Origin: Nitrospirota bacterium
GTDB taxonomy: Bacteria; Nitrospirota; UBA9217
Assembly (NCBI GenBank): GCA_963663225.1
Contig: OY760142.1
Coordinates: forward strand, 128,001-192,000
Length of the DNA: 64,000 bases
Reading direction: 5' to 3'
Positions 31,947 through 64,000 of the stretch are shown here, piece by piece (within the stretch, counting starts at the first letter, position 1; each line of letters begins with the position of its first letter). A program made the translations under genes and the position numbers. The notes beneath the pieces were generated by a model. That model did no database searches. It was not told where the DNA came from and worked only from the letters and a program-made list of their open reading frames with translations.

Positions 31947-32618
31947 TTACCGCCGCGTGAACAACAGCGTTCGGCGATCTCCTTTCTGCGCCGCCTGCTC
32001 CACCTGGCTCCCGCAGCCCTCGCCGTACACCAGATCTATCGCCTCGATAAAACCGGGGCTCAGGCTGCGGGAGCCCGGCTCTTTCCGTGCATTGCAGCTG
32101 AATTGGAAAGCATCGCCGATCGCGGCCAGCACTTCGTTTCCATCCGAGAAGTGCAAGGGCCAGAGCAGGCAGACCTTCGGCTTCACAAGCTGCAACGGCA
32201 GGTTGAGCGTCATTGCAACAGTATGCAGCGAGCAGTGCGTCCGGTTATTGGACCAGTACGCAAAGACGCACAGACCATCCTCATTCGTATCAAGGGAATA
32301 CAGTCCGGGCTCTTCTTCTTCAAAGACATTGTCATATCCGCCGACGGTCAGAAGATGCGGGCACAGCTTCGCGGCTTCGGGCAAGACCTTGATGATCCGT
32401 TTCATTTCCGCGGCGGTAACGCAAACCTCATAGGACGCGCAGCAGCACTTCTCGCCCCTGACACAGCCGTTGCAGCGGTTTTCAAGCTGCAGAATCGATT
32501 CCACGTCAACATCAATACTGCTGCGCTGATACCGGGGCGTTTGTTTAGTACTGCGGTTTTTATGATTGTTCGGTTTCACGAATGAATAATTTTTCTGCTT
32601 CGTACTTTTTCCCTGCAT
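31947..32618 (-). CDS. DUF3109 / YkgJ-like Cys-cluster protein
   Basis: CNGC...CCC, GLCVFA, CSLH, KPKVCLLWPL; starts just after the mug stop. Confidence 0.75.
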   Translation of the reverse strand: MQGKSTKQKNYSFVKPNNHKNRSTKQTPRYQRSSIDVDVESILQLENRCNGCVRGEKCCCASYEVCVTAAEMKRIIKVLPEAAKLCPHLLTVGGYDNVFEEEEPGLYSLDTNEDGLCVFAYWSNNRTHCSLHTVAMTLNLPLQLVKPKVCLLWPLHFSDGNEVLAAIGDAFQFSCNARKEPGSRSLSPGFIEAIDLVYGEGCGSQVEQAAQKGDRRTLLFTRR

Positions 32619-51710: not shown

Positions 51711-52460
51711 ATGACTCAGGATTCAGACAGCAAGACGCCTGACCAGAAAACAAAGTTTGCGCTTCTCGTCGATGGCTACGCAAAAGACCTCTTTACGACA
51801 GGCTTGATACTACAGCGTCTTGGTTATGATATCTATATTGCCAATACGGCTGAAGATGCGCTGAAAATCATTGACGTTGCCATGCCTGCGCTCATCATAA
51901 GCGAACTGGTCTTGCCAAACATGTCCGGCCTTGAACTGCTTGTGCGAATAAAACACAGCACTGAAAGCAAATCCATTCCTTTCATAATTCATACTGCTCT
52001 GGATGACCCAAAACGGGAGGAACTGTGCAGGGCATCGGGATGTTCGGCCATCTTGAAAAAGCCGGCAAACCCAAGCGCACTCTATAGTGCGATCCAGCAG
52101 GCAACAGAGCAGACGCCGCGAAGACATATACGGCTGCGGACGCTGCTCCCGGTCAGGATTGGCGGGACACCTGTAAACGAGACCGTTGGAACAGAATTCG
52201 TATCAGCACTCTCTGAAGATGGAATTTTTGTACGCACACTGAGTCCCCGCCCCGTCGGATCAATACTGCCGGTCACCATAATGATTCATTCTATCCCCGT
52301 CAAGCTGAAAGCAACCGTCCTGCGCAGCATCACCATAAATCCCGGAGTATTCAAAGAACCGGGAATGGCCATGAAATTCGCCGATATATCGGCCACCGAC
52401 AGAGAACTGCTCAGAAATTTTATCTTAGGACAGATCATGAAGGATGTCCCCTCACAATAA
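51711..52460 (+). CDS. Pseudo-receiver plus PilZ domain protein
   Basis: REC fold (LLVDG, LIISELVLPNMSG, KKP) followed by PRRHIR...ALSEDGIF...GMAMKF. Confidence 0.85.
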   Translation: MTQDSDSKTPDQKTKFALLVDGYAKDLFTTGLILQRLGYDIYIANTAEDALKIIDVAMPALIISELVLPNMSGLELLVRIKHSTESKSIPFIIHTALDDPKREELCRASGCSAILKKPANPSALYSAIQQATEQTPRRHIRLRTLLPVRIGGTPVNETVGTEFVSALSEDGIFVRTLSPRPVGSILPVTIMIHSIPVKLKATVLRSITINPGVFKEPGMAMKFADISATDRELLRNFILGQIMKDVPSQ

Positions 52461-52806
52461 AACATCCATACCCGATCACCGTTTTCCTGCTCCTCCTACA
52501 TTCCTTGACAAGCAATTACAATATAAATGCCGCAGAGAACCGAAAACTAAATTCTGTGGGAAGAATGCGTTTAACTATCCGATATATTAAGGCTTTTTCT
52601 TTAGTTTTTAAATAATTTCCACAACACACCGTTTTTTTTTCGCAAACCACCGTTTATCGGTATGGACAACAGTATACCGTTGCAGTATAATTAACTCTCC
52701 TGTATAATAAAAGTGTTTGTACCTGTTTTCAACGCGTTAAGAGGATATTTACTGCACGAGAACGTGATTTTCGGACTGCCGGCACAATGAATATGAATAA
52801 ACAGGT

Positions 52807-53835
52807 GTGATGCCCAGCATGGAAAAACTTTTTTTTTGTACTGATAAACAATTGCGCATTTGCACCTGGGAGCAGGAGATTGCCGAGTTCACCGGTCGGC
52901 CAGCGTCTTCTATTCTCGGCAATAAGTACTATGATGTTTTCCCACGGATTACCATCAAGAACAAAGACGCCCTTTCCCGGGTCATTCGAGAAGGAAAATC
53001 GCTCGCCCTCAAAAACTATTCTTTTCATTGTCTGTACGGCAACCTGAAATCCGACATAAGAATTAAACTGCTTACGGCCACCGCTGGAAAACCCACCCGT
53101 CTGAAAGTAACCATACAGCCTCATTCGACATGCGGAGTGGCGAAAAAGCTGCGCCAATCCAAAAAACTTATCGATATCGGAAAAATTGCCTCCACACTTG
53201 CTCACGGAGTGCGCAACCCGTTAAATGCCATAAAGGGTGCCGTCGTTTATCTGAGAGAAAAGTATTCAGGAGAGGACACTCTCGTTGAATTTACAAAAAT
53301 CATGGAAGAGGAGATTTCACGTCTCGAAATCTTTATTTCAAAATTTCTCAGTTCCTCCGTGTCTGAAACGGAAGTCATTGAAACAGACATTAATGCACTG
53401 CTGAAGAAAATTGAGGTATTTACCTCTCTGCAGATATACACGAGGAATATTCAGTCGAACTACGAGTTTGGCAGTGTCCCTCCCATAACCATCAACTCCT
53501 TTCATCTGGAGCAGGCTATCCTGAATGTCATTAACAATGCAATCGAAGCAATGAAGGGTGGAGGCCAGCTTTCCGTAAAAACGTTTACGGCAGAGCGCAG
53601 TAAAAAATACTATGTCGTGATATCCATAAGCGATACCGGCCCCGGGATATCCGACAAAAAGCTGGATGAGCTCAATTCAGAAGGCACCAATAACGGAAAA
53701 GGATTCGGCCTGTTCATTACGTACGAAATTCTCAGACACTATGGCGGCCACATAGAAATAGACAGCAAAAAGAATATCGGCACGACAATTACCCTCTTTG
53801 TTCCCTGTCAGCATGTGGCAAAGGAACTGCCGTGA
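52807..53835 (+). CDS. Cytoplasmic PAS-histidine kinase with atypical H-box (HG)
   Basis: LAHGVRNPLNAI, NNAIEAM, DTGPGI, GKGFGL; GTGA overlap with the next gene. Confidence 0.88.
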   Translation: MMPSMEKLFFCTDKQLRICTWEQEIAEFTGRPASSILGNKYYDVFPRITIKNKDALSRVIREGKSLALKNYSFHCLYGNLKSDIRIKLLTATAGKPTRLKVTIQPHSTCGVAKKLRQSKKLIDIGKIASTLAHGVRNPLNAIKGAVVYLREKYSGEDTLVEFTKIMEEEISRLEIFISKFLSSSVSETEVIETDINALLKKIEVFTSLQIYTRNIQSNYEFGSVPPITINSFHLEQAILNVINNAIEAMKGGGQLSVKTFTAERSKKYYVVISISDTGPGISDKKLDELNSEGTNNGKGFGLFITYEILRHYGGHIEIDSKKNIGTTITLFVPCQHVAKELP

Positions 53836-55172
53836 AAGACAGCAAAAAAGTGCTGATTGTTGATGACGAACCGAATGCCGTACGGGTCCTCTCCATGATT
53901 TTGAAAGAGGAAAACTATCAGGTCTTCGGCGCGTCAGACGTGGACAGCGCACTGGCCATTATCCGCAACCAGGACGTGGATGCGGTCATTACTGATTTGA
54001 AAATGCCTTCCAAGGATGGGTTCCAGCTTTTCGAGTACGTTTCCGCGCACTATCCCGATATGCCGGTGATGTTTCTAACGGCGTACGGCACCGTTGAATC
54101 AGCAGTGGATGCCATGCGAAGCGGCGCCTATCATTATTTCATCAAACCTCCCGATTATGCTCAGCTCAAAAGCGTTCTTGCGCGTGCCGTAGAGCAGCAC
54201 GCGGTAAAGAAAGAATTTGCGCTCCTGAAAAAAAATTCCGCGCAAAGCGATAAAATATACTCCATTATCGGGAAAACGCCCCCTATCATCGAGATCATTA
54301 AAACCATCGACACGGTCAAAGATACGGAAAGCAGCGTCCTCATCCAGGGTGAAACAGGAACGGGAAAAGAAGTGATTGCCGCTAATCTTCATTATCTCGG
54401 CAAACGCGCGCAGAAACCGTTTGTCGCGTTGAACTGCGCCGCAATACCCAAGGATCTCATGGAGTCAGAGCTTTTTGGATTTGAGAAGGGTGCGTTTACG
54501 GGGGCGTCCATGGCACGCGCCGGCAAATTTGAAGAGGCAGCGGAAGGGACGATTTTTCTCGACGAAATAGGCGAGTTGGAGCTCTCCGTCCAGGCGAAGC
54601 TGCTGCGGGTGTTGCAGGAACGGGAAGTGGAGCGGCTCGGCGCAAACAAGAAATTCAAAGTCAATTTCAGACTCATATCCTCCACGAACAGAGACCTGAA
54701 AAAAGAAGTCCGTGAAGGACGTTTCAGAGAAGATCTGTACTACCGGATCAACGTAATTCAGATAGAAGTACCGCCGCTTCGTGACCGAAAGCAGGATATT
54801 CCCCTGTTGGCGACCGAATTCCTGAACAGCTTCTCTCTGCGGGAAGACAGACCGTTCGTGCTCGATGATGATGTAAAAAAAGTTTTTCTGAATTATGATT
54901 GGCCGGGAAATGTTCGGCAACTCAAAAATGTTATTGAACGGGCAGTCGTTCTAGCACAAAGCGACCGCATAACGCTGCATGAACTGCCTGAGGAGTTCCT
55001 TATCCATTGCAACAAACCAAAGACTCCTGAAACGACAAAGACGCTCAAGGTTATCGAGCACCAGGCCATAAAAGACGCATTGCTTATGTGCAGCGGCAAT
55101 ATCTCTAAAGCGGCACGTCAACTCGGGATTTCTCGGAAGACGTTCTATAAAAGGCTGAAAGAAATCGAATAA
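53832..55172 (+). CDS. Sigma54-dependent NtrC-family response regulator
   Basis: VDDE, TDLKMP, GETGTGKE, GAFTGA, WPGNVRQL, Fis-type HTH. Confidence 0.96.
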   Translation: MKDSKKVLIVDDEPNAVRVLSMILKEENYQVFGASDVDSALAIIRNQDVDAVITDLKMPSKDGFQLFEYVSAHYPDMPVMFLTAYGTVESAVDAMRSGAYHYFIKPPDYAQLKSVLARAVEQHAVKKEFALLKKNSAQSDKIYSIIGKTPPIIEIIKTIDTVKDTESSVLIQGETGTGKEVIAANLHYLGKRAQKPFVALNCAAIPKDLMESELFGFEKGAFTGASMARAGKFEEAAEGTIFLDEIGELELSVQAKLLRVLQEREVERLGANKKFKVNFRLISSTNRDLKKEVREGRFREDLYYRINVIQIEVPPLRDRKQDIPLLATEFLNSFSLREDRPFVLDDDVKKVFLNYDWPGNVRQLKNVIERAVVLAQSDRITLHELPEEFLIHCNKPKTPETTKTLKVIEHQAIKDALLMCSGNISKAARQLGISRKTFYKRLKEIE

Positions 55173-55240
55173 GTACTTACCGAACCGCGCGTTCCCGTTC
55201 GGAACAAGTGCAAGTCAGGCTTGCAGCGGAGTAACCATAC

Positions 55241-57091
55241 GTGGAAAAAACCGATATATATAAGAAAAAATTTTCAATCCTCCAGGATCTTTCCAGCGCC
55301 ATTGTTATTTCAGATAATATCAACACGATAGCAAATCTCCTGCTTGATTTCGCCCTCAACTATACCAATGCAGAAAAAGGATCCCTTCTTCTGATAGCCG
55401 AACAGGACGAGCTGTCCATTCTTGCATCACGGGGAATGGATGACCGGATCGATACCAGCCGCAAAGTAAAAATCGGCACCGGAATCGCCGGCATGATAGC
55501 CAAAAACAAAACTCCTGTGCTGGTAGAGAACATCGAGAAAGAAAATAAATTTATACACTTTCGGCGCAATCGATACAAAACGAACTCCTTCATTTCCTGC
55601 CCTCTGGTCATCAACAACAAACTGCTCGGGCTGCTGAATATCAATGACAAGAAAGACGGGACCCCGTTCAACGTCGACGAATTCGAACTTTTGAAAACCC
55701 TTGCAAACCACGCTGCAATCGCCCTGGAAAACGTTTTTTTGCTGAATCAGCTGAAAGCAAAAGCGGCGGAGCTCGAAGAAGTAAACAAAAAACTTGTTGC
55801 AACCGATATTTTAAAAACCGAATTTCTCACACGAGTCTCTCACGAGCTGCGGACTCCTTTGAACTCCCTGAAAGGGGCAATTTATTTCCTGCAACACAGC
55901 GGAGCCATCGAAAAAAATGAGCAGCAGGAATTTCACGAAATCATCTCGGTGGAGACAAATAAACTTGTATCTATTGTGGAAAATCTCCTAAACTTCCTTC
56001 GTCTGGAAGATGAAACCAGAATAACCAAAAAAACGGTACTCGATCTCGGTGATATTTTCAAAGAGGTGCAGGAAACGAAATCGCTGACGACCCTCCTCTC
56101 GCGCAAGGATGTTCGGCTCACCATGGACGTGCACGGCAACCGCATCGATCTCATCGGCGACAGGATAAAAGTGATCCAATTCTTTACGAATTTAATCGCC
56201 GGAGTCTGTCCCTATCTCGAACGTGGCGACGCTGTTGAAATCATGGCGGCGGAAAACGGGCATATCACCATCTCTGTTTCTATTACCCGTCCGCTGCCGA
56301 AAGACGTCCTTTCCATTCTTGGAGACAGACGGTATGTTTTCCAGATTGAGCACCCCGAGGACCGCCTGAAGCTTTATCTTGCACGAAACATCATCGAAAC
56401 ACACCGATGGAATCTGTCCGCCGTCAACTCGGACTCGCTGTGCCAGATAACGCTTTCTATTCCGAAAAGCGTTCAACAGACAATCGATATTTATGTTGAT
56501 CAAAGTATGAATTCTTTTGTGGAGCTCATTTCCGAGCTGCTTGACATTAATATTTGCTCAGTTATGCTCAGCGATGATCTGACCAACGAATTGACGGTAA
56601 AAAGCGCGGTCGGCCTTGATGAAGACATCATTAAAAGCACACGAATAAAACTCGGTGACAAGATCGCCGGCTGGGTGGCTCTGGAAGGAAAGCCATTGTT
56701 TATTGAGAACATAGAAAATGACGCCCGTTTTGCGAAAACGAACGTCGCGCAATATACCACGAAGTCGCTGATGACGCTCCCGCTGAAAATAGGAGATCGC
56801 GTCATCGGTGTGTTGAACATGAACAATAAAAAGACGGCGGAAACGTTTTCAAAACATGATTATGACCTTGCTTCGCAACTGAGCCAGCAGATATCACGTT
56901 TCATTGAGTTGTTGCACTCGGACCGCCACAGCGAGGATGACTTTAAAAAATTCATATCCTCACTCGGAAGACTCCTTGATTCCGATCAATCCTATGCCGA
57001 AAAAAAGGCGCTTTTTACCGATTTTGCGGACAAAATTTTAAAAAGCTCCGCACCCATCATCAAACTTAAAAAATCCGGCCCGATTGCGTAA
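55241..57091 (+). CDS. GAF-HisKA-(degenerate HATPase)-GAF protein
   Basis: Two GAF domains (GIAGMIA...PVLVENI; KIAGWVA...PLFIENI) and SHELRTPLNSL; no N, G1 or G2 boxes. Confidence 0.85.
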   Translation: MEKTDIYKKKFSILQDLSSAIVISDNINTIANLLLDFALNYTNAEKGSLLLIAEQDELSILASRGMDDRIDTSRKVKIGTGIAGMIAKNKTPVLVENIEKENKFIHFRRNRYKTNSFISCPLVINNKLLGLLNINDKKDGTPFNVDEFELLKTLANHAAIALENVFLLNQLKAKAAELEEVNKKLVATDILKTEFLTRVSHELRTPLNSLKGAIYFLQHSGAIEKNEQQEFHEIISVETNKLVSIVENLLNFLRLEDETRITKKTVLDLGDIFKEVQETKSLTTLLSRKDVRLTMDVHGNRIDLIGDRIKVIQFFTNLIAGVCPYLERGDAVEIMAAENGHITISVSITRPLPKDVLSILGDRRYVFQIEHPEDRLKLYLARNIIETHRWNLSAVNSDSLCQITLSIPKSVQQTIDIYVDQSMNSFVELISELLDINICSVMLSDDLTNELTVKSAVGLDEDIIKSTRIKLGDKIAGWVALEGKPLFIENIENDARFAKTNVAQYTTKSLMTLPLKIGDRVIGVLNMNNKKTAETFSKHDYDLASQLSQQISRFIELLHSDRHSEDDFKKFISSLGRLLDSDQSYAEKKALFTDFADKILKSSAPIIKLKKSGPIA

Positions 57092-57201: not shown

Positions 57202-58509
57202 TTATGCCCGCACTACATTGCCCTTATTCTTGATTTTGCTCGTCGCGTTTCTGGCATCTACAATCAGTGCGGAGTTTTGGACAAGGAATTCATAATCATA
57301 GGAAGAATGGTCTGTGGAAATCAGAACGCAGTCATATTGTTTTAGGGACTCCTTTGTCAAGGGAACTGAGTTCTTTTTAAGGTCATACATGCGCATCTTG
57401 TGCGTCTGCGGGACATAGGGGTCATTATAATCAACATCTGCTCCATGTTCCATAAGAAGCTCTATCAATTTCAAGGACGGCGATTCACGGACATCATCGA
57501 TATCTTTTTTGTATGCAAGCCCCAGAAGCAAAATCTTTGATGCTTTGATGCTTTTACCTCTTTCATTCAGCGCATGAATGACTTTTCCGATGACATAATA
57601 CGGCATGGACGTATTTATTTCACCGGCCAGTTCTATGAATTTCGTGTTGAAATCATATTCGCGCGCCTTCCAAGTGAGGTAAAATGGATCGATAGGAATA
57701 CAATGGCCGCCAAGCCCGGGTCCCGGGTAGAAAGCTTGAAAGCCGAATGGCTTGGTTTTTGCCGCTTCAATGACTTCACACACGTCGATCCCCATTCTGT
57801 CGAACAGGATTTTCAACTCGTTCACCAGCGCGATATTTACCGCCCGGTATATGTTTTCAAGCAGCTTTGCCGATTCCGCCACCTTGGTGGATGATACCGG
57901 CACGGTTTTTTCAACAATCGCACTGTATAATGCGTTCGCGTACTTCAGGCAATCTGCAGTATATCCACCGACCACCTTGGGTATCGTGCTGGTGGTAAAG
58001 TCCTTGTTATTCGGATCTTCACGCTCAGGTGAGAACGCTAGATAAAAGTCCTTTCCTGCTTTCATGCCTGTTTTTTCGAGTATGGCCCGCATGTCTTCAT
58101 CGGTTGTGCCGGGATATGTTGTCGATTCCAGGGAAATAAGCTGTCCTTTTTGCAAATATTGCGCTATGGTTGTTGTCGTATTGAATACATAGGAAAGATC
58201 CGGTTCACGCTGTTTGTTCAGCGGCGTAGGAACGCAGATGATAATGCAATCCACATCACGAAGCACGGAGAAATCCGTTGTTGCGTGAAAACGGTTGTTT
58301 TTTCTCAAAGCCGCCGTATGCTCGGAAGGAATGTGTTTTATATAAGACTTGCCTTCATTCAGCGACAATACTTTCTTTTCATCAAGATCAAATCCTATTA
58401 CATTGAACCCCTGCTTCTCGAACGCCATCACAAGAGGCAATCCTACATACCCCAGACCGATGACCCCCACCTTCGCTGTTTTTTCTTCAATTTTTTTTCC
58501 TAAATCCAT
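57202..58509 (-). CDS. Nucleotide-sugar (UDP-GlcNAc-type) 6-dehydrogenase, WbpA/WecC family
   Basis: GLGYVGLP, CVPTPL, ESTTYPGTT, SPERED, GGHCIPIDP, DVRESP. Confidence 0.93.
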   Translation of the reverse strand: MDLGKKIEEKTAKVGVIGLGYVGLPLVMAFEKQGFNVIGFDLDEKKVLSLNEGKSYIKHIPSEHTAALRKNNRFHATTDFSVLRDVDCIIICVPTPLNKQREPDLSYVFNTTTTIAQYLQKGQLISLESTTYPGTTDEDMRAILEKTGMKAGKDFYLAFSPEREDPNNKDFTTSTIPKVVGGYTADCLKYANALYSAIVEKTVPVSSTKVAESAKLLENIYRAVNIALVNELKILFDRMGIDVCEVIEAAKTKPFGFQAFYPGPGLGGHCIPIDPFYLTWKAREYDFNTKFIELAGEINTSMPYYVIGKVIHALNERGKSIKASKILLLGLAYKKDIDDVRESPSLKLIELLMEHGADVDYNDPYVPQTHKMRMYDLKKNSVPLTKESLKQYDCVLISTDHSSYDYEFLVQNSALIVDARNATSKIKNKGNVVRA

Positions 58510-58659
58510 GGATAGTACTCCTTTCCTTAATAACATCCGATTTGCCGGCATTCTGTTTGCCGAATGAATATCTATGATTCACGTACTCGCGCCTTGTCGG
58601 TAGTATGTGCAAAAGTTTTCAGTTTGATGACGCATTGTGTGAGGTATTTTGGTGAGTCG

Positions 58660-60120
58660 TTACCGTAAGCTGGATACAATGGAGCTTACCTGCTTCTCCA
58701 TCGAGCTTTTAATGGATTCCAAAGCTTCGGGGTCGCTTGCTTCGAAACGCATGACCAGAACCGGCTGCGTGTTTGAAGCCCGGATCAACCCCCATCCCTT
58801 GTCGAAAACGGCCCGCACGCCGTCGACCGTAATAACATCTTTGGGTTTCAGGGAAATATGCTGTCCATGGGAGAATATATCTTTTGCTTTTTCTACAACC
58901 TGGAATTTAATGGCATCAGAACAATCAAAGCGGATCTCCGGAGTATTATATGTCTTCGGCAAATCAGCTATCAAAGAACTGAGTGATGCCGTATCACCTC
59001 CAGCGGATTTCAGTTTCTTAACAATTTCCACCAGGCGGCAAGCAGCGTAAATTGCATCATCGTAGCCGAAATACCGGTCGGCGAAAAAGAGATGGCCGCT
59101 CATTTCACCGGCAAGCGCCGCATGCACTTCTTTCATTTTTGATTTGATCAGGGAGTGGCCCGTCTTCCACATGATGGCATTCCCGCCATGGGCGCGGATG
59201 TCATCATACATTGTCTGGGAGCATTTTACTTCGGACACAAAAACAGCACCCGGTCGGTCAAGCAGAATTGCGCGCGAAAAAATGACCATCAGTTGATCGC
59301 CCCACAGGATGCTTCCCGTTTCATCCACCACGCCGATTCTGTCGGAGTCACCGTCAAAGGCGATGCCCATATCAGCTTTCTCTCTGAGGACGGTGTCGAT
59401 CAACGTAGTGAGATTGTGTGGAATCGTGGGATCAGGATGATGGTTTGGAAATCTGCCGTCCGGTTCTGAAAATAACTCGATCACGTCACAGTTCATGCTG
59501 TGAATAAGTTCAGGAGCTGCAAGCCCGGCAGTTCCGTTCCCGGAATCAAGGACAATCTTCAGTCGTCTGCCCTGAATAGCGCTGAATTTATTTTTAAGAC
59601 AAGCGATATAATCCTGCAAAATAGGATGGTGCGATACCGTTCCCGCTTTTGGATTTCCATCGGTTGAACCGTTCGTCGACATTTGGCCGTCTTTTTTTGA
59701 GCGCCGAATATCGTCGGCATCTGTTTCCATAATCCTTCTCAGGTTCTGTATCTCTTCACCATAAATAGTATCCCTGCCAACACAGAGCTTGAACCCGTTG
59801 AATTCCGCTGGATTATGGCTTCCGGTAATCATGATGCCTGCGCCCGGGTTGAGATGATACAGTGAAAAATAAAGCGCAGGGGTTGGACAAAGGCCAAGAA
59901 CCGTGGCGTGCATTCCGGCCGCCGTGATTCCCCGGACAAGATCATCGCACAGCCTTGGAGAACTGGTACGGGCATCATATCCCACCGTAACCTCATTCAC
60001 GTTACGAGGTCTGAGATAAGCAGCAAACCCTCTTCCCAGAGATTCAATAACCGGAGAAGTCAGATCATGATCTGCAATCCCCCGGATGTCGTATTCCCTA
60101 AAAATATCGGTGTTAATCAT
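58660..60120 (-). CDS. Phosphomannomutase/phosphoglucomutase (AlgC/ManB)
   Basis: FREYDIRG, TGSHNP, FDGDSDR, GEMSGH, RASNTQP. Confidence 0.95.
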   Translation of the reverse strand: MINTDIFREYDIRGIADHDLTSPVIESLGRGFAAYLRPRNVNEVTVGYDARTSSPRLCDDLVRGITAAGMHATVLGLCPTPALYFSLYHLNPGAGIMITGSHNPAEFNGFKLCVGRDTIYGEEIQNLRRIMETDADDIRRSKKDGQMSTNGSTDGNPKAGTVSHHPILQDYIACLKNKFSAIQGRRLKIVLDSGNGTAGLAAPELIHSMNCDVIELFSEPDGRFPNHHPDPTIPHNLTTLIDTVLREKADMGIAFDGDSDRIGVVDETGSILWGDQLMVIFSRAILLDRPGAVFVSEVKCSQTMYDDIRAHGGNAIMWKTGHSLIKSKMKEVHAALAGEMSGHLFFADRYFGYDDAIYAACRLVEIVKKLKSAGGDTASLSSLIADLPKTYNTPEIRFDCSDAIKFQVVEKAKDIFSHGQHISLKPKDVITVDGVRAVFDKGWGLIRASNTQPVLVMRFEASDPEALESIKSSMEKQVSSIVSSLR

Positions 60121-60148: not shown

Positions 60149-61630
60149 TTATTCGGCGGCGGGAAGCTCGGGAAGGGAATTTCTCTTCTTGGCATCATGT
60201 CTGTTGTAGTCATCGTCAAAGCGGACAATATCGTCTTCTTCAAGATACTCTCCATTCTGGACTTCAATGATCTGGAGGGGTATTTTACCTTGGTTTTCGA
60301 GACGGTGTTTCGTGGAAATAGGAATATAGGTGCTTTCATTGGGGTGCACATCATAGACTTTATCCCCATTGGTGACCCGTGCCGTACCGGCGACAACAAC
60401 CCAATGCTCGCTCCGATGATGATGGAGCTGATAGGAAAGTTTCGCCCCCGGATAAATTTCTATGCGTTTTATTTTATACCGGTCGCCGCCTTCTAAAACC
60501 GTGTAGGAACCCCACGGCCGTTGAACAGTCCGGTGCACCAAGTGTTCATCCGCTTTGCGTTTTTTAAGTTCATCTACAACTTTTTTAACGTCCTGGGCCT
60601 TCTCCTTGCTGCACACGAGGGTCGCGTCCGGGGTGTCTACAACAACAGTATCCTTTAAACCAATGGTAGCAACCAGCCGTTTGTCAGCGTAGAGAATCGA
60701 ATTGCTGCTTCCGATATCGATGACATTGCCGGTCATAATATTTCCCGAGCGGTCTCTCTCGGAAACATCATCAAGGGCCGTCCAGCTACCCACGTCTGAC
60801 CAACCGATATCCGCTGGGATGACGGCCGCGTTATCTGTCTTTTCCATGACTGCGTAATCAATGGAAATAGCGTTTATTTTTTTGAACACTTCTGCTATAA
60901 CTTCCGACTCTTTGTCAGTGCCGATGTTTCTTTTGATTTCCATCAAGCCCTGGTAGAGATCCTTCTGGTACTTTTCGATTTCCTTAAGGAATGTTCTGAC
61001 TTTCCAAATAAAAATACCGCTGTTCCAGAAATAGCGTCCGCTTTTTAGATACTCCCGAGCAGTATCGATGTCCGGTTTCTCAACAAAGGCCTCAACCCTG
61101 TTGACATTAGCAGGCATCTGGTTTCCCGGCGATGCAGAAGACACACTGGTTCCCGCTTTAATATAACCGTACCCAGTCTCCGGCCGGTCAGGTTTGATGC
61201 CGAGCGTTACCAGAAAGTCCTGTTTAGCAGCCTCAGATGCTGTTTTGAGCAGATCCAGAAAAAGATCCGATTTGCTGATAATATGATCCGCAGCAAGAAC
61301 AACTATTATGGCGTTAGGATCTATGCGCTCCAGGTGAAGCGCTGCAAGACCCAGCGCTGGCGCCGTATTTTTTGCTTCCGGCTCAAGAATAAAATTGCCA
61401 TTCCAGGTACGGTTGAACTTTGTAGAAAGTTGCTGGTTAATGGAGTCCGCAAGTGAATGATTTGTTACTATAAAAACGTCCTCAATGCGAACCATCGGAA
61501 GAACGCGGCTTACTGTTTGGAGAATAAGGGAATCCTCACCACCGATCTTTAAAAGCTGCTTCGGCGTCTTCTCTCGTGAAAGAGGCCAGAAGCGTGTTCC
61601 AGAACCACCTGCCATAATGACAGCATACAT
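60149..61630 (-). CDS. manC: Mannose-1-phosphate guanylyltransferase / mannose-6-phosphate isomerase
   Basis: AGGSGTRFWPLSR, FVEKP, WNSGIF, SIDYAVME, cupin RPWG...HHRSEHW. Confidence 0.95.
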   Translation of the reverse strand: MYAVIMAGGSGTRFWPLSREKTPKQLLKIGGEDSLILQTVSRVLPMVRIEDVFIVTNHSLADSINQQLSTKFNRTWNGNFILEPEAKNTAPALGLAALHLERIDPNAIIVVLAADHIISKSDLFLDLLKTASEAAKQDFLVTLGIKPDRPETGYGYIKAGTSVSSASPGNQMPANVNRVEAFVEKPDIDTAREYLKSGRYFWNSGIFIWKVRTFLKEIEKYQKDLYQGLMEIKRNIGTDKESEVIAEVFKKINAISIDYAVMEKTDNAAVIPADIGWSDVGSWTALDDVSERDRSGNIMTGNVIDIGSSNSILYADKRLVATIGLKDTVVVDTPDATLVCSKEKAQDVKKVVDELKKRKADEHLVHRTVQRPWGSYTVLEGGDRYKIKRIEIYPGAKLSYQLHHHRSEHWVVVAGTARVTNGDKVYDVHPNESTYIPISTKHRLENQGKIPLQIIEVQNGEYLEEDDIVRFDDDYNRHDAKKRNSLPELPAAE

Positions 61631-61724
61631 TAACCGAACCATCCTTTTATTTTTTAATGAATTGCGAATTATCTCACAGGGGCATACGGCAGTCAATGCA
61701 ATTCAACAAACGAAGCCGCTGAGC

Positions 61725-62411
61725 TTAGAAGGAGATTGATTCAAATTCCGGTTTAAGCAAAATATGTTTATCTTTTAAAATCTGAATTTCACCGTTCCGC
61801 TGCCACTTATCAAGCACCCGGGTGACCGTTTCACGCGAAAGTCCGGTCATGTCCGCGATGTCCTGATGAATGAGTTTCACCTTCAAGACGACACCAATTG
61901 CATTCTTTTCCCCGTAGTTTTCAGACAGCATGAGAAAGAGCATCTTGATTCGTTGTGCGGCATTATTAAAGTTCAACATTTGTATTTTTTTGAGTGACTC
62001 ACGAAGCCGTGCACATAAAATATTCAGGAGATTATCGAGCACTCTGGACCTGCCATAGAGCAGCGAGTAGAAATCGCGCTTCGAAATAAGCGCAACAGCG
62101 GAGTTCTTTGTTGCATATATGGTCGCAGGAGCCGTTTTTCCATCAATCAGCGACAATTCTCCGAAAAAATCGCCCTGCTGATGCATTGTCACCAGTATTT
62201 CTTTTCCCTTTTCTGTCGTTTGAATCGCCTTTCCTTCGCCGTCAAGAATGATGTACATAAATTCATTGGTATTCTCTTCGCGTAAAATTATTTCATTCTT
62301 CCTGAAATTTTTAACAATAATCTTTTCCTGAACCAGGTGGAAATCCTCCGGAGTCAGCGAGTGAAAAAGCGGATTTTTTTTTAAAAAATCTATTCGATCG
62401 TATTTTCTCAA
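61725..62411 (-). CDS. Crp/Fnr family transcriptional regulator (CRP-type recognition helix)
   Basis: FFGELSLID cNMP-binding barrel; HQDIADMTGLSRETVTR HTH; no Fnr cysteines. Confidence 0.92.
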   Translation of the reverse strand: MRKYDRIDFLKKNPLFHSLTPEDFHLVQEKIIVKNFRKNEIILREENTNEFMYIILDGEGKAIQTTEKGKEILVTMHQQGDFFGELSLIDGKTAPATIYATKNSAVALISKRDFYSLLYGRSRVLDNLLNILCARLRESLKKIQMLNFNNAAQRIKMLFLMLSENYGEKNAIGVVLKVKLIHQDIADMTGLSRETVTRVLDKWQRNGEIQILKDKHILLKPEFESISF

Positions 62412-62633
62412 GTGGCACCCTACGGGAGAAAATTCATCAATCCAGCATAAGAAACCTCACTGGATTGCAGCTTTTTTAATTAACTGTAGCTTGTTGTTTT
62501 CTTAATTATATCGGGATTTTAATCTGATTGATACTTTTATTTTGCTTACTGCGAATATTAAAGCTTTACTTACTATACGTAGTTTGTATTAAGGCTGCTA
62601 CCACTTTTGAACGCTGAATAATATTTTCAAAGA

Positions 62634-62649
62634 CGTGATAAAAATCACA
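62634..62649. promoter_or_regulatory. CRP-type operator
   Basis: CGTGA-TAAAAA-TCACA (9/10 match to TGTGA-N6-TCACA), centred at -41.5 relative to a TATATT -10 box at 62671-62676. Confidence 0.7.
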
Positions 62650-62724
62650 GTTTTTTTTGTGCGTTTTGGGTATATTTAAGTTACTATATAATATATATTT
62701 AATTAAAATCTAGCGTCTTTTTCT

Positions 62725-62816
62725 TCTCTGCTCAGAGCAAACCAAGGGAAACCTTGGGACGCAAAGCAACGGGACTAATGATTTATAGACTTTCATGTCC
62801 GCCGAGCCGCCAGAGA
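62725..62816 (+). ncRNA. Cyclic dinucleotide riboswitch, c-di-GMP-I/GEMM-I family, A20 (cGAMP-type) variant
   Basis: P1 TCTCTG/CAGAGA; GCAAACC-AAGG-GAAA-CCTT-GGGACGCAAAGC core; CTAA...ATG tetraloop receptor in P3; A47 at 62763, C92 at 62810, position 20 is A at 62736. Confidence 0.9.
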
Positions 62817-62835
62817 TTTTTCTGGTGGCTTTTTC
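62805..62835 (+). terminator. Riboswitch expression-platform terminator overlapping the P1 3' strand
   Basis: AGCCGCCAGA-GATTTT-TCTGGTGGCT followed by TTTT. Confidence 0.8.
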
Positions 62836-62857
62836 TATGAAACAAGGAGGTTGTCGC

Positions 62858-63232
62858 ATGCTAAATAAAACAATACTCACTCTTCTGGCGCTGATACTGG
62901 TAGCGACCCTACAAGCTGGATGTGGCGGAAGCAGCGGACCGACCTATTCGACATCCAGCTATGGAGCTGCAACATTATCTTGGAGCCGCGCGACAACCTA
63001 TACTGATGGTTCTACGCTCACTCCTGCGGGTTACAAAATCTACTACGGCACTGCTTCAGGAACATATTCACAATATAAGCAAATTCCCCTTGGAAGTCTG
63101 GGCAATCCAAACTCACCGAGCTACACTCTCAGCCTCCCGAGGGGCGCTACTTACTACTTTGCAATTGCGGTATACGATGCGTCAAATGTTGAAAGTTCTT
63201 TATCTGCCGAAGTAAGCAAAACTGTTCGATAA
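62858..63232 (+). CDS. Lipoprotein with a fibronectin type III domain
   Basis: SD AGGAGG; lipobox-like LQAGC; ATLSWS...AGYKIYYGTASGTY...YYFAIAVYDASNVES.LS.EV. Confidence 0.85.
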   Translation: MLNKTILTLLALILVATLQAGCGGSSGPTYSTSSYGAATLSWSRATTYTDGSTLTPAGYKIYYGTASGTYSQYKQIPLGSLGNPNSPSYTLSLPRGATYYFAIAVYDASNVESSLSAEVSKTVR

Positions 63233-63303
63233 TCTGAAATCTGATAGCCGGTTTTTACACATGAATATAGGACACGCGGAATAATACTTGAGGAGACAGT
63301 ATT

Positions 63304-64000
63304 ATGAAAAAAATCACAAAAAATAAACTAATCTGCTACTTTTTATTAGCAGTAGTCCTCACCATCACTTCAATCATCGTTCTCTGCAACTCCGCCCAAG
63401 CTGATCCGGTTTTGCTTTTTTCCGACCTCAACTGGGGTCCAAAATCCGGTTGGGAAGGATCTACAACCAAAGGCGCGGCAGTCACCATCTGGGGAAAAAA
63501 TTTCAGCAGTTCCCGAGGCTCCAGCTATGTCACCATTAACGGAGCGCAGCTCACAAGCGCTTCTGACTATGCTGAATGGGGCGCTACCGGTCCTGCAAGG
63601 GGTCTTGAAAGAATAACGTTCTGGATCCCCAGTACCGCATCAAACGGCGACGGTCAAATTACCGTAACCGTGGGCGGCGTCACATCGAATTCACTCGCTT
63701 TCACCGTGATGACGGGATCAATCTACTTTATATCCGTGAATGATGGAAACAACAGTTACAATGGATTATACTCAACCCGTACCGGCCACACAGGTAGTGA
63801 TGGTCCATTCAAGGACATCGACATGTTTAATCCCAACTATAACCCGCAAGGGAGCACCGGTTCATATATTATCTATGTGCGAGGTGGGACCTATACCACA
63901 ACAGACCGTGTCAATGATCCAAATGCCTTTGTTGCCTTGAGAGGACCCTGCGGTTCATCGTCAAGCAGACACGCGCTGATCGGTTATCCGGCTGAGACTC
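63304..64000 (+). CDS. Secreted protein with IPT/TIG-like domain followed by a probable beta-helix; runs off the window
   Basis: Manual translation MKKITKNKLICYFLLAVV...AQADPVLLFSDLNWGPKSG...VTIWGKNF...ITVTVGGVTSNSLAFTV...IYFISVNDGNNSYNG...GPFKDI...IYVRGGTY...GYPAE; SD GAGGAG. Confidence 0.8.
   Translation, partial: MKKITKNKLICYFLLAVVLTITSIIVLCNSAQADPVLLFSDLNWGPKSGWEGSTTKGAAVTIWGKNFSSSRGSSYVTINGAQLTSASDYAEWGATGPARGLERITFWIPSTASNGDGQITVTVGGVTSNSLAFTVMTGSIYFISVNDGNNSYNGLYSTRTGHTGSDGPFKDIDMFNPNYNPQGSTGSYIIYVRGGTYTTTDRVNDPNAFVALRGPCGSSSSRHALIGYPAET

Follow-up and report, generated by a model that had tools for sequence, protein, structure and literature searches.

Proposed two-step control of a secreted-protein operon by a Crp-type site and a GEMM-I riboswitch in a Nitrospirota genome

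The stretch of DNA analysed here, referred to as the window (64,000 nucleotides; G000:C1:128001-192000, taken from contig OY760142.1 of the Nitrospirota assembly GCA_963663225.1), belongs to a genome of one contig of 3.255 Mb and ends with a gene for a Crp/Fnr-family regulator (crp) that is divergent from an operon for secreted proteins. The 446-bp spacer between crp and the first operon gene holds a CRP-type palindrome (the box), two hexamers of the -10 type and a cyclic-dinucleotide riboswitch. The elements that an initial annotation had listed for positions 61725-64000 were each found again on the sequence. The question raised by this locus is what has to happen before the operon is expressed: which protein reads the box, in what sense does it act, and which molecule is read by the RNA?

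We propose, with a probability of roughly 0.55, that the lipoprotein/beta-helix operon is under two-step control, by class II activation through a Crp-type protein and by a dinucleotide-responsive ON riboswitch. At initiation, a CRP-type dimer, most likely the divergently encoded non-canonical Crp, would bind at 62634-62649; this site, about 41.5 bp upstream of the predicted start, would stand in for a -35 element and recruit RNA polymerase. At elongation, once about 43 nt have been transcribed, the polymerase would meet a GEMM-I aptamer that decides whether it passes the terminator at 62804-62831: bound cyclic dinucleotide would stabilize the closing helix and withhold the 5' arm of the terminator, and read-through would follow. 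Expression would then require that the regulator be active and that dinucleotide be abundant. The AND gate put forward in the initial annotation follows as logic from activation by the regulator combined with an ON riboswitch. The elements, their conserved spacing and linkage and the mutually exclusive folds are observed; the transcription start, the identity of the protein at the box, its activating effect and both ligands are predictions.

Spacing of the box and its linkage to riboswitches

The box, CGTGA-N6-TCACA (CGTGATAAAAATCACA; 62634-62649, plus strand), has nine of ten core bases and is centred at 62641.5. The hexamer TATATT (62671-62676, plus strand) lies exactly 21 nt past it and predicts a start near 62683, which puts the box at -41.5; the centring claimed earlier is arithmetically correct for this predicted start. 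In class II CRP-dependent promoters of the Escherichia coli galP1 type, a 16-bp TGTGA-N6-TCACA site at -41.5 replaces the -35 element. TATATT had been chosen as the -10 element, a choice borne out by the conservation of a hexamer at 21 nt; the second hexamer, TATAAT (62687-62692, plus strand), has no counterpart at that place in G002 (genomes are given by our handles, G000 being that of the window).

The genome contains five perfect copies of TGTGA-N6-TCACA and 39 with one mismatch, and 0.0054 are expected per 400 nt. All five perfect boxes, and nine of the 23 GTGA-N6-TCAC sites, fall into the 11% of the genome that our map of open reading frames leaves uncovered (the maps behind these and other context calls are crude). 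Four of the six best sites have TAnnnT exactly 21 nt downstream: the window box and sites before a TPR/VTT gene pair, before a MerR-like gene with pilM and before a DUF2846 gene. The third of these (G000:C1:2075941-2075983) consists of a perfect box with TAAAAT at 21 nt, ahead of the small MerR-like gene and pilM. As pilM sits under a riboswitch for 3',3'-cyclic GMP-AMP (3',3'-cGAMP) in Geobacter metallireducens (PMC9262584), the box regulon here overlaps the riboswitch regulon there.

The same spacing recurs in relatives. Orthologs of this Crp (51-97% identity) were found in ten further genomes among 40 relatives searched, and beside them TAnnnT stands exactly 21 nt from eight of nine proximal boxes, on the divergent target-gene side; the ninth has TACTAT at 20 nt. 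In related riboswitch leaders from six genera (G000, G004, G002, G021, G019, G001, G042 and G044) the hexamer is exactly 21 nt past the proximal box in all eight, with diverged spacer sequences, and the predicted starts are 38-56 nt upstream of the aptamer. The box is conserved in G004, G002 and G021. Unlinked copies occur in G019 and G001, where the sampled box-riboswitch unit and crp are on different contigs; the G001 unit heads orthologs of both operon genes (55 and 28% identity). As a pattern, box-N21-TAnnnT gives 31 matches in 31 family genomes and none for a backwards control.

A search for related loci confirmed 139 relatives, of which the best 80 loci, at 39-97% identity, were scanned; they come from Nitrospirota, Geobacteraceae, Desulfuromonadales and Syntrophales, with a few from elsewhere. 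Here TAnnnT follows 24 of 43 boxes (at most one mismatch) at 21 nt and six at 22 nt, and any other spacing from 8 to 39 gives counts of 0-6. Taken together, the conserved spacing supports the geometry of a class II CRP-dependent promoter. Two loci, L022 8939-8987 (G021) and L026 1821-1869 (G020), have tandem boxes, in which a perfect box precedes the proximal class II box by exactly 33 nt, so that the sites would lie at about -41.5 and -74.5; there is a riboswitch in G021 and none in G020.

According to Rfam scans, 19 of the 80 subfamily loci (in Nitrospirota, Geobacteraceae and Desulfuromonadales) have a GEMM-I-clan riboswitch within 2.5 kb, which corresponds to 0.24 per 5.6-kb locus compared with about 0.011 expected from 187 riboswitches in 31 family genomes. 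The riboswitch is divergent from crp in four of them, as in the window, and follows the crp stop on the same strand in 15. A box (at most one mismatch) with TAnnnT at 21 nt is aimed at the riboswitch in 12 of the 19. The remaining seven comprise one with the hexamer at 22 nt, one with a two-mismatch box and TATGAT at 21 nt, one with a box 194 nt upstream, one with none and three Geobacter loci in which GGTGATCTGAATCACT overlaps the crp stop. Since the crp stop precedes the riboswitch (and the box where there is one) at 15 of these 19 loci, the constant partner of the box is, on this arrangement, the target promoter and not the crp promoter.

In a quick maximum-likelihood tree of 79 loci and the window protein (the partial L142 was left out), the linked loci fall into several separate clades, with at least five changes for the downstream arrangement and at least three for the divergent one. 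The targets of the linked loci are always secreted proteins, and a homolog of the FN3-like domain occurs in 19 of the 80 subfamily loci. Synteny had been named as a check on the arrangement, and the unit of box, -10 hexamer, riboswitch and surface-protein operon is indeed retained in further genera and in another phylum. Among the linked loci, four have only the c-di-GMP-I-GGC riboswitch (RF03167; c-di-GMP is cyclic di-GMP) and three have RF03167 and RF01051 in tandem. At L115 3281-3596, L117 2489-2796 and L120 3282-3595, such tandem riboswitches come directly behind the crp stop and a perfect box of class II, with RF03167 at 64-65 bits followed about 140 nt later by RF01051 at 84-87 bits, ahead of a secreted FN3/PKD protein; behind a class II box they would amount to three checkpoints in series.

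The riboswitch and its terminator

The riboswitch claimed for the leader is present as a full-length match to the GEMM-I (c-di-GMP-I) model RF01051 at 62726-62814 on the plus strand (cmscan, 62.4 bits compared with a gathering score of 35, E 5e-11, model positions 1-87 of 87). The scan for terminators found a hairpin of 12 pairs at 62804-62831 followed by a T run, giving an intrinsic terminator at 62804-62837 on the same strand. When the aptamer is folded alone, 62725-62733 pairs with 62804-62816, the 3' strand of its closing helix; in the fold of the full leader, 62804-62816 becomes the 5' arm of the terminator. This overlap and the U run are found in 11 of 12 related leaders, with compensatory changes that preserve both pairings. 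A similar design has been described for pilM of G. metallireducens, where a cGAMP riboswitch has mutually exclusive aptamer and terminator folds (PMC9262584). Since the terminator shares bases with the 3' strand of the aptamer, a ligand-stabilized aptamer should block termination, and the riboswitch is probably a transcriptional ON switch.

The identity of the ligand turns on a single base. Position 11 of the model, a consensus G, aligns to A62736 by cmscan, the alignment of the subtype having been made by eye. We take this position to be G20 of the Vibrio Vc2 aptamer. On that mapping, the aptamer lacks the G20 of c-di-GMP aptamers and has the adenine of the GEMM-Ib (3',3'-cGAMP) class, which was reportedly defined in 2015 PNAS papers. 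In Vc2, G20 recognizes one guanine of c-di-GMP; cGAMP riboswitches have an A there, and G20A RNAs can bind both c-di-GMP and cGAMP (PMC6140456). Because of the A in place of G20, the ligand is probably 3',3'-cGAMP, or else both cGAMP and c-di-GMP. The cyclic-dinucleotide riboswitch claimed originally stands, and its ligand may be 3',3'-cGAMP rather than c-di-GMP. The sequence subtype, CUCUGCUCAGA-GC-AAACC ... GCCGCCAGA, is shared by leaders linked to crp in Nitrospirota and in assemblies labelled Desulfuromonadales or 'delta proteobacterium'.

Whether the organism could make cGAMP was considered from its GGDEF domains, of which there are 17 matches, two with Ser at the specificity position (G000:C1:2398430-2398774, minus strand, and 1947302-1948507, plus strand); we regard these two as candidate non-canonical cyclases. 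One has GGDDF, as does GSU1937 (PMC8835794); the other, a GAF protein, has GGEEF and a spacer two residues longer, and the combination of Ser with GGEEF has been called inactive (PMC6456294). A canonical Hypr GGDEF domain (GacA type, Ser with GGDEF) was not found among the 17 matches. Synthesis of cGAMP by the organism is possible on this basis.

The only other GEMM-I riboswitch of the genome (G000:C1:816972-817106, minus strand; loci L005/L006) scores 48.5 bits, also has A at the G20-equivalent position and precedes genes for a lipoprotein, a PEGA/TPR protein, a PD40 propeller and a TPR protein. One of the five perfect boxes, at 817249-817264, lies 150 nt upstream of it, with a strong TTGACA-17-TAGATT promoter between. 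This box was considered as independent support for the arrangement and set aside: it is poorly conserved and has no TAnnnT at 21 nt, so that what it offers is weak and at genus level only.

The regulator and the reading of the box

The crp gene (61725-62411, minus strand, TTG start) encodes 228 amino acids with the two parts that define the CRP/FNR superfamily, an N-terminal beta-roll of the cyclic nucleoside monophosphate (cNMP)-binding type (PF00027, 70.9 bits) and a C-terminal Crp-type helix-turn-helix (HTH_Crp_2, PF13545, 45 bits; Crp, PF00325, 34.9 bits). The recognition helix reads SRETVTR in the translation, just as the initial annotation had it when it spoke of a CRP-type RETV helix, and so contains the Arg-Glu-x-x-x-Arg arrangement. 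In E. coli CRP, Arg, Glu and Arg of the recognition helix read TGTGA, and the RETVxR helix of this Crp fits the TGTGA half-site by analogy. The helix is invariant as RETV[TS]R in the aligned subfamily members (alignments A1, n = 11, and A2, n = 13, reaching down to 39% identity), and this Crp is the sole paralog of its genome with RETVxR.

The ligand pocket is another matter. The protein scores 81.3 bits against the CRP equivalog NF008732, below the cut-off of 266, and reaches the cut-off of no NCBIfam equivalog. Its phosphate-binding cassette, FGELSLIDGKTAPATIYA (GKTAPAT), has no Arg-Ser; alignments to PDB entries place its Ala-Pro opposite the Arg-Ser of the cAMP-binding relatives 7pza and 4ev0 (cAMP is cyclic AMP). 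These residues are Arg82 and Ser83 in E. coli CRP. The subfamily motif is FGE-x-S-L-I-D-x-K-T-x-P-A, of which the T-x-P-A part is unchanged or almost unchanged across the subfamily; P95 and A96 are invariant in A1 and A2, and no aligned member of either has Arg at the canonical position; a regular expression run over 79 loci finds the pair of T-x-P-A cassette and RETV helix in most. Seven paralogous cNMP domains of the same genome retain the cassette Arg, and the genome also has two class III cyclase domains with scores over the cut-off. The organism has cNMP signalling, yet this Crp looks adapted to another signal. Because the Arg and Ser that bind the cyclic-nucleotide phosphate are missing throughout the subfamily, cAMP sensing by this Crp is doubtful and its own signal is probably not cAMP; the conserved, non-cAMP-like pocket points to a different effector. 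The 'cyclic-nucleotide' input that the initial annotation had assigned to Crp is not supported.

That the subfamily is itself a receptor for a cyclic dinucleotide (3',3'-cGAMP or c-di-GMP) is an idea that we hold to be distinctly unlikely, although it would have consequences. If true, the same or sister messengers would be sensed twice, by a protein at initiation and by an RNA at elongation; this would form a coherent two-checkpoint filter that has spread between Nitrospirota and Desulfuromonadota along with the secreted FN3-type proteins that it controls. If, in addition, the ligand were cGAMP, the protein would be a transcription-factor receptor in Geobacter-type signalling, for which the cited work describes riboswitch effectors only.

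An alternative that is unlikely, though far from negligible, is that the box is read by a canonical CRP-type paralog (genome positions 1128211-1128972) as a true cAMP receptor, so that cAMP would act at initiation and the dinucleotide at elongation, with the neighbouring Crp having another role or acting as a competitor. This paralog retains the Arg-Ser cassette (GKGRSAT) and has Arg-Glu in its helix (SREAVSK), and could recognize this motif as well. Its conservation in G007, G011 and G044 speaks for this reading, as do the two class III cyclase domains of the genome. Perfect class II boxes in G006, G007 and G011, all without the non-canonical Crp, fit this explanation, and cAMP-CRP acting together with the Vc1 riboswitch on gbpA provides a documented precedent (PMC4545359). 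What it leaves unexplained is why a non-canonical crp lies beside the box-promoter in divergent and in tandem arrangements, with the exact geometry adjoining the gene in 23 of 80 loci. Against it, too, is the Lys of the paralog where CRP has the third contact Arg.

Several observations weigh against the proposal of activation by the neighbouring Crp followed by an ON riboswitch. The window box carries one mismatch; G019, G020 and G021 have an ortholog of the Crp and no perfect match to the pattern, their proximal boxes also having one mismatch; and 42 of the 80 subfamily loci are without a box of at most one mismatch. Conversely, G006, G007 and G011 have perfect box-plus-hexamer sites and no ortholog of this Crp, the closest proteins having 32% identity in G007 and 31% in G011, with none at E <= 1e-15 in G006; G007 and G011 carry the canonical paralog with GKGRSAT and SREAVSK. 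There is no riboswitch within 2.5 kb at 61 of the 80 subfamily loci, and no box (at most one mismatch) within 400 nt upstream at 24 of 31 sampled riboswitch loci (the best match per genome and the second copy of the window genome, out of 187), so the pairing spans only a minority of both subfamily loci and riboswitches. Only the near-identical G004 preserves the box at the second riboswitch; three of four orthologous leaders from other genera have no box of at most two mismatches and the fourth has a two-mismatch match 288 nt upstream. As to the ligand, the placement of A62736 at the G20 equivalent rests on the Rfam alignment and on taking model position 11 as G20, and A20 aptamers can be bispecific (PMC6140456).

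The neighbouring Crp might also bind the box and repress, or chiefly autoregulate its own divergent gene, leaving the riboswitch as the sole positive control. RNA polymerase can be blocked by a site that overlaps the -35 region, some CRP-like proteins no longer bind DNA once they have taken up a ligand (Xanthomonas CLP with c-di-GMP, as cited in PMC4545359), and where the genes are divergent the box is located between them. We judge this quite improbable: no -35-like hexamer is needed or conserved, and the 21 nt from box to -10 hexamer, held across genera, are the signature of activation from -41.5. On the crp-facing side, TAnnnT at 21 nt is found for none of 11 boxes. Autoregulation is further opposed by the 15 of 19 linked loci in which the riboswitch, with the box where found, follows the crp stop and cannot be a crp operator, and by the distance of 150-330 nt from box to crp start in divergent loci.

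That the palindrome and hexamer arose by chance in an AT-rich spacer with several -10-like hexamers, only the riboswitch being functional, is scarcely credible: a simple promoter scan did not flag the operon promoter, because there is no -35 element, but this explanation is already contradicted by the conservation data, given the low expected frequency of boxes per 400 nt, the retention of box and 21-nt spacing while the flanks diverged and the contrast of the 31 pattern matches with the empty control.

Target proteins, neighbouring genes and known systems

The first operon gene (62858-63232, plus strand) is preceded by AAGGAGG and encodes a small secreted protein of 124 amino acids whose signal peptide runs to ...LQAGC in the translation, making it a probable lipoprotein (Cys22). 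It gives no Pfam match to fn3 (PF00041) even at E <= 1; residues 39-124 have 45% identity (E 3e-16) to a domain called as fn3 in the target protein of a relative, and the homologous domain reaches 34.4 bits in the L115 protein and 48.3 bits in the L088 protein against fn3 (cut-off 25). The 'FN3 lipoprotein' of the initial annotation thus keeps its signal peptide and cysteine, and is FN3-like by homology rather than by a domain match of its own. Orthologs of this protein adjoin crp or the riboswitch in relatives. The second gene (63304-64000, plus strand, for the first 232 codons; it ends 1844 bases past the window) encodes a secreted protein of 846 amino acids with a TIG/IPT match at 24 bits, a choice-of-anchor Q match at 37.9 bits, beta-helix-like repeats and three C-terminal repeats of about 80 amino acids, in agreement with its description as an IPT/beta-helix secreted protein. 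The nearest Atlas clusters are right-handed beta-helix proteins (0.95-0.96), which serves as a lead only, and a sequence search of the PDB with the 846-residue protein gave no match at E <= 0.01.

On the other side of crp, manC (60149-61642, minus strand; GMP_PMI equivalog, 573.6 bits compared with a cut-off of 372.95) is followed by a manB-type mutase of the PGM/PMM family (58660-60120, minus strand) and a nucleotide-sugar dehydrogenase (57202-58551, minus strand; TIGR03026, 443.6 bits), all assigned with Pfam and NCBIfam. Crp had been described as heading these genes. A scan found a sigma-70-type promoter for manC, TTGACT-17-GATAAT with a TG extension (61668-61696, minus strand), in the gap from the crp stop (61725) to the manC start (61642), and it is conserved in G000, G004 and G001. 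No terminator was found between this stop and start, so read-through from crp into manC is possible, though manC has no need of it. The order crp-manC-manB-dehydrogenase was seen only in the same three genomes of the genus. With a conserved promoter of its own before manC, the description of Crp as head of the manC-manB genes is not supported, and the proposed coordination of matrix proteins with polysaccharide precursors, for which the gene order is present in the window, would be at best a genus-level feature. A CRP-like site with nine of ten core bases (TGTGAGATAATTCGCA in the minus-strand reading, 61663-61678), the 6-bp spacer of which is the manC -10 element GATAAT, was considered as a repressor site for manC; it is kept in G004, its half-sites are not in G001 even though the promoter is, and it is probably fortuitous.

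Further along, the window holds genes for a PilZ-domain protein, a histidine kinase, a sigma-54 response regulator and a double-GAF HisKA protein (52053-57091). Homologs of the histidine kinase, the sigma-54 response regulator and the GAF kinase lie near the crp orthologs of G001, G010, G015, G019 and G042, which suggests a larger conserved signalling neighbourhood around crp; this set of signalling genes, PilZ included, is more widely conserved than the manC linkage. As these neighbours include a sigma-54 activator, a sigma-54 promoter was sought as well; TGGCAC-N5-TTGCW occurs once in the window (at 32459, against 2.3 expected by chance), far from the locus, and this candidate was rejected. 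A long block of exopolysaccharide genes (glycosyltransferases, Wzx, Wzy, a sugar aminotransferase and deacetylases) is convergent with the operon. Inside it, adjoining the Wzy-like gene and about 12.5 kb past the end of the window, is a gene for a second beta-helix protein (DUF5123, 433 amino acids; L003 14556-15857, minus strand), which may be a paralog of the riboswitch-controlled 846-residue protein.

Riboswitches are usually studied alone, and little is known of how often they stand behind dedicated activator-dependent promoters. In uncultured Nitrospirota and metal-reducing Desulfuromonadota we find a conserved cassette of regulator gene, fixed-spacing site, putative ON riboswitch and secreted target. 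It offers a case in which AND logic with two checkpoints, acting on surface or matrix proteins inside an exopolysaccharide locus, can be tested directly, and for part of the cyclic-dinucleotide regulon of both lineages it puts forward a named candidate regulator.

Compared with known systems, the promoter is like the E. coli class II promoters of the galP1 type in having a 16-bp site at -41.5 (from a start that is predicted here) in place of the -35 element and a regulator with the Arg-Glu-x-x-x-Arg helix. Unlike E. coli CRP, that regulator falls below the NF008732 cut-off and lacks the contacts to the cAMP phosphate. The closest precedent for the whole arrangement is gbpA of Vibrio cholerae, where a cAMP-CRP-dependent promoter has its CRP site upstream of the Vc1 c-di-GMP-I riboswitch (PMC4545359). 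Both systems place a CRP site upstream of a GEMM-I riboswitch before a secreted surface or colonization factor, so that two nucleotide signals would meet on one transcript. For gbpA, the CRP is the global cAMP-binding protein encoded elsewhere; here it would be the product of a dedicated Crp-subfamily gene that has no cNMP-binding Arg-Ser and is linked to the promoter in many lineages, and the window locus has strict class II spacing and an A20-type aptamer.

The aptamer is like the Geobacter GEMM-Ib riboswitches (Gs1761 and pilM of G. metallireducens) in its GEMM-I fold and its A at the G20 equivalent (PMC6140456), and like pilM in its apparent transcriptional ON design with mutually exclusive folds and in its control of surface or pilus genes (PMC9262584). 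It differs from them in its sequence subtype and in that the genome offers only atypical Ser-bearing GGDEF candidates. Among CRP/FNR-family proteins, Xanthomonas CLP and Burkholderia Bcam1349 bind c-di-GMP and regulate biofilm or exopolysaccharide genes (cited in PMC4545359); they have the CRP fold in common with our regulator, and their own effector is a cyclic dinucleotide rather than cAMP. Given the gbpA precedent, joint control by a transcription factor and a riboswitch for cyclic dinucleotides is already known, which tempers the earlier remark that the arrangement was not recognized as described. That remark stands for the linked cassette: we found no description of a Crp-family gene linked to GEMM-I riboswitches in the literature searched, whose supplementary tables may list neighbouring genes. 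What appears to be new is that, in two phyla, GEMM-I-clan riboswitches are linked to a dedicated Crp subfamily of non-canonical type, with strict class II spacing and an accompanying, distinct A20 aptamer subtype.

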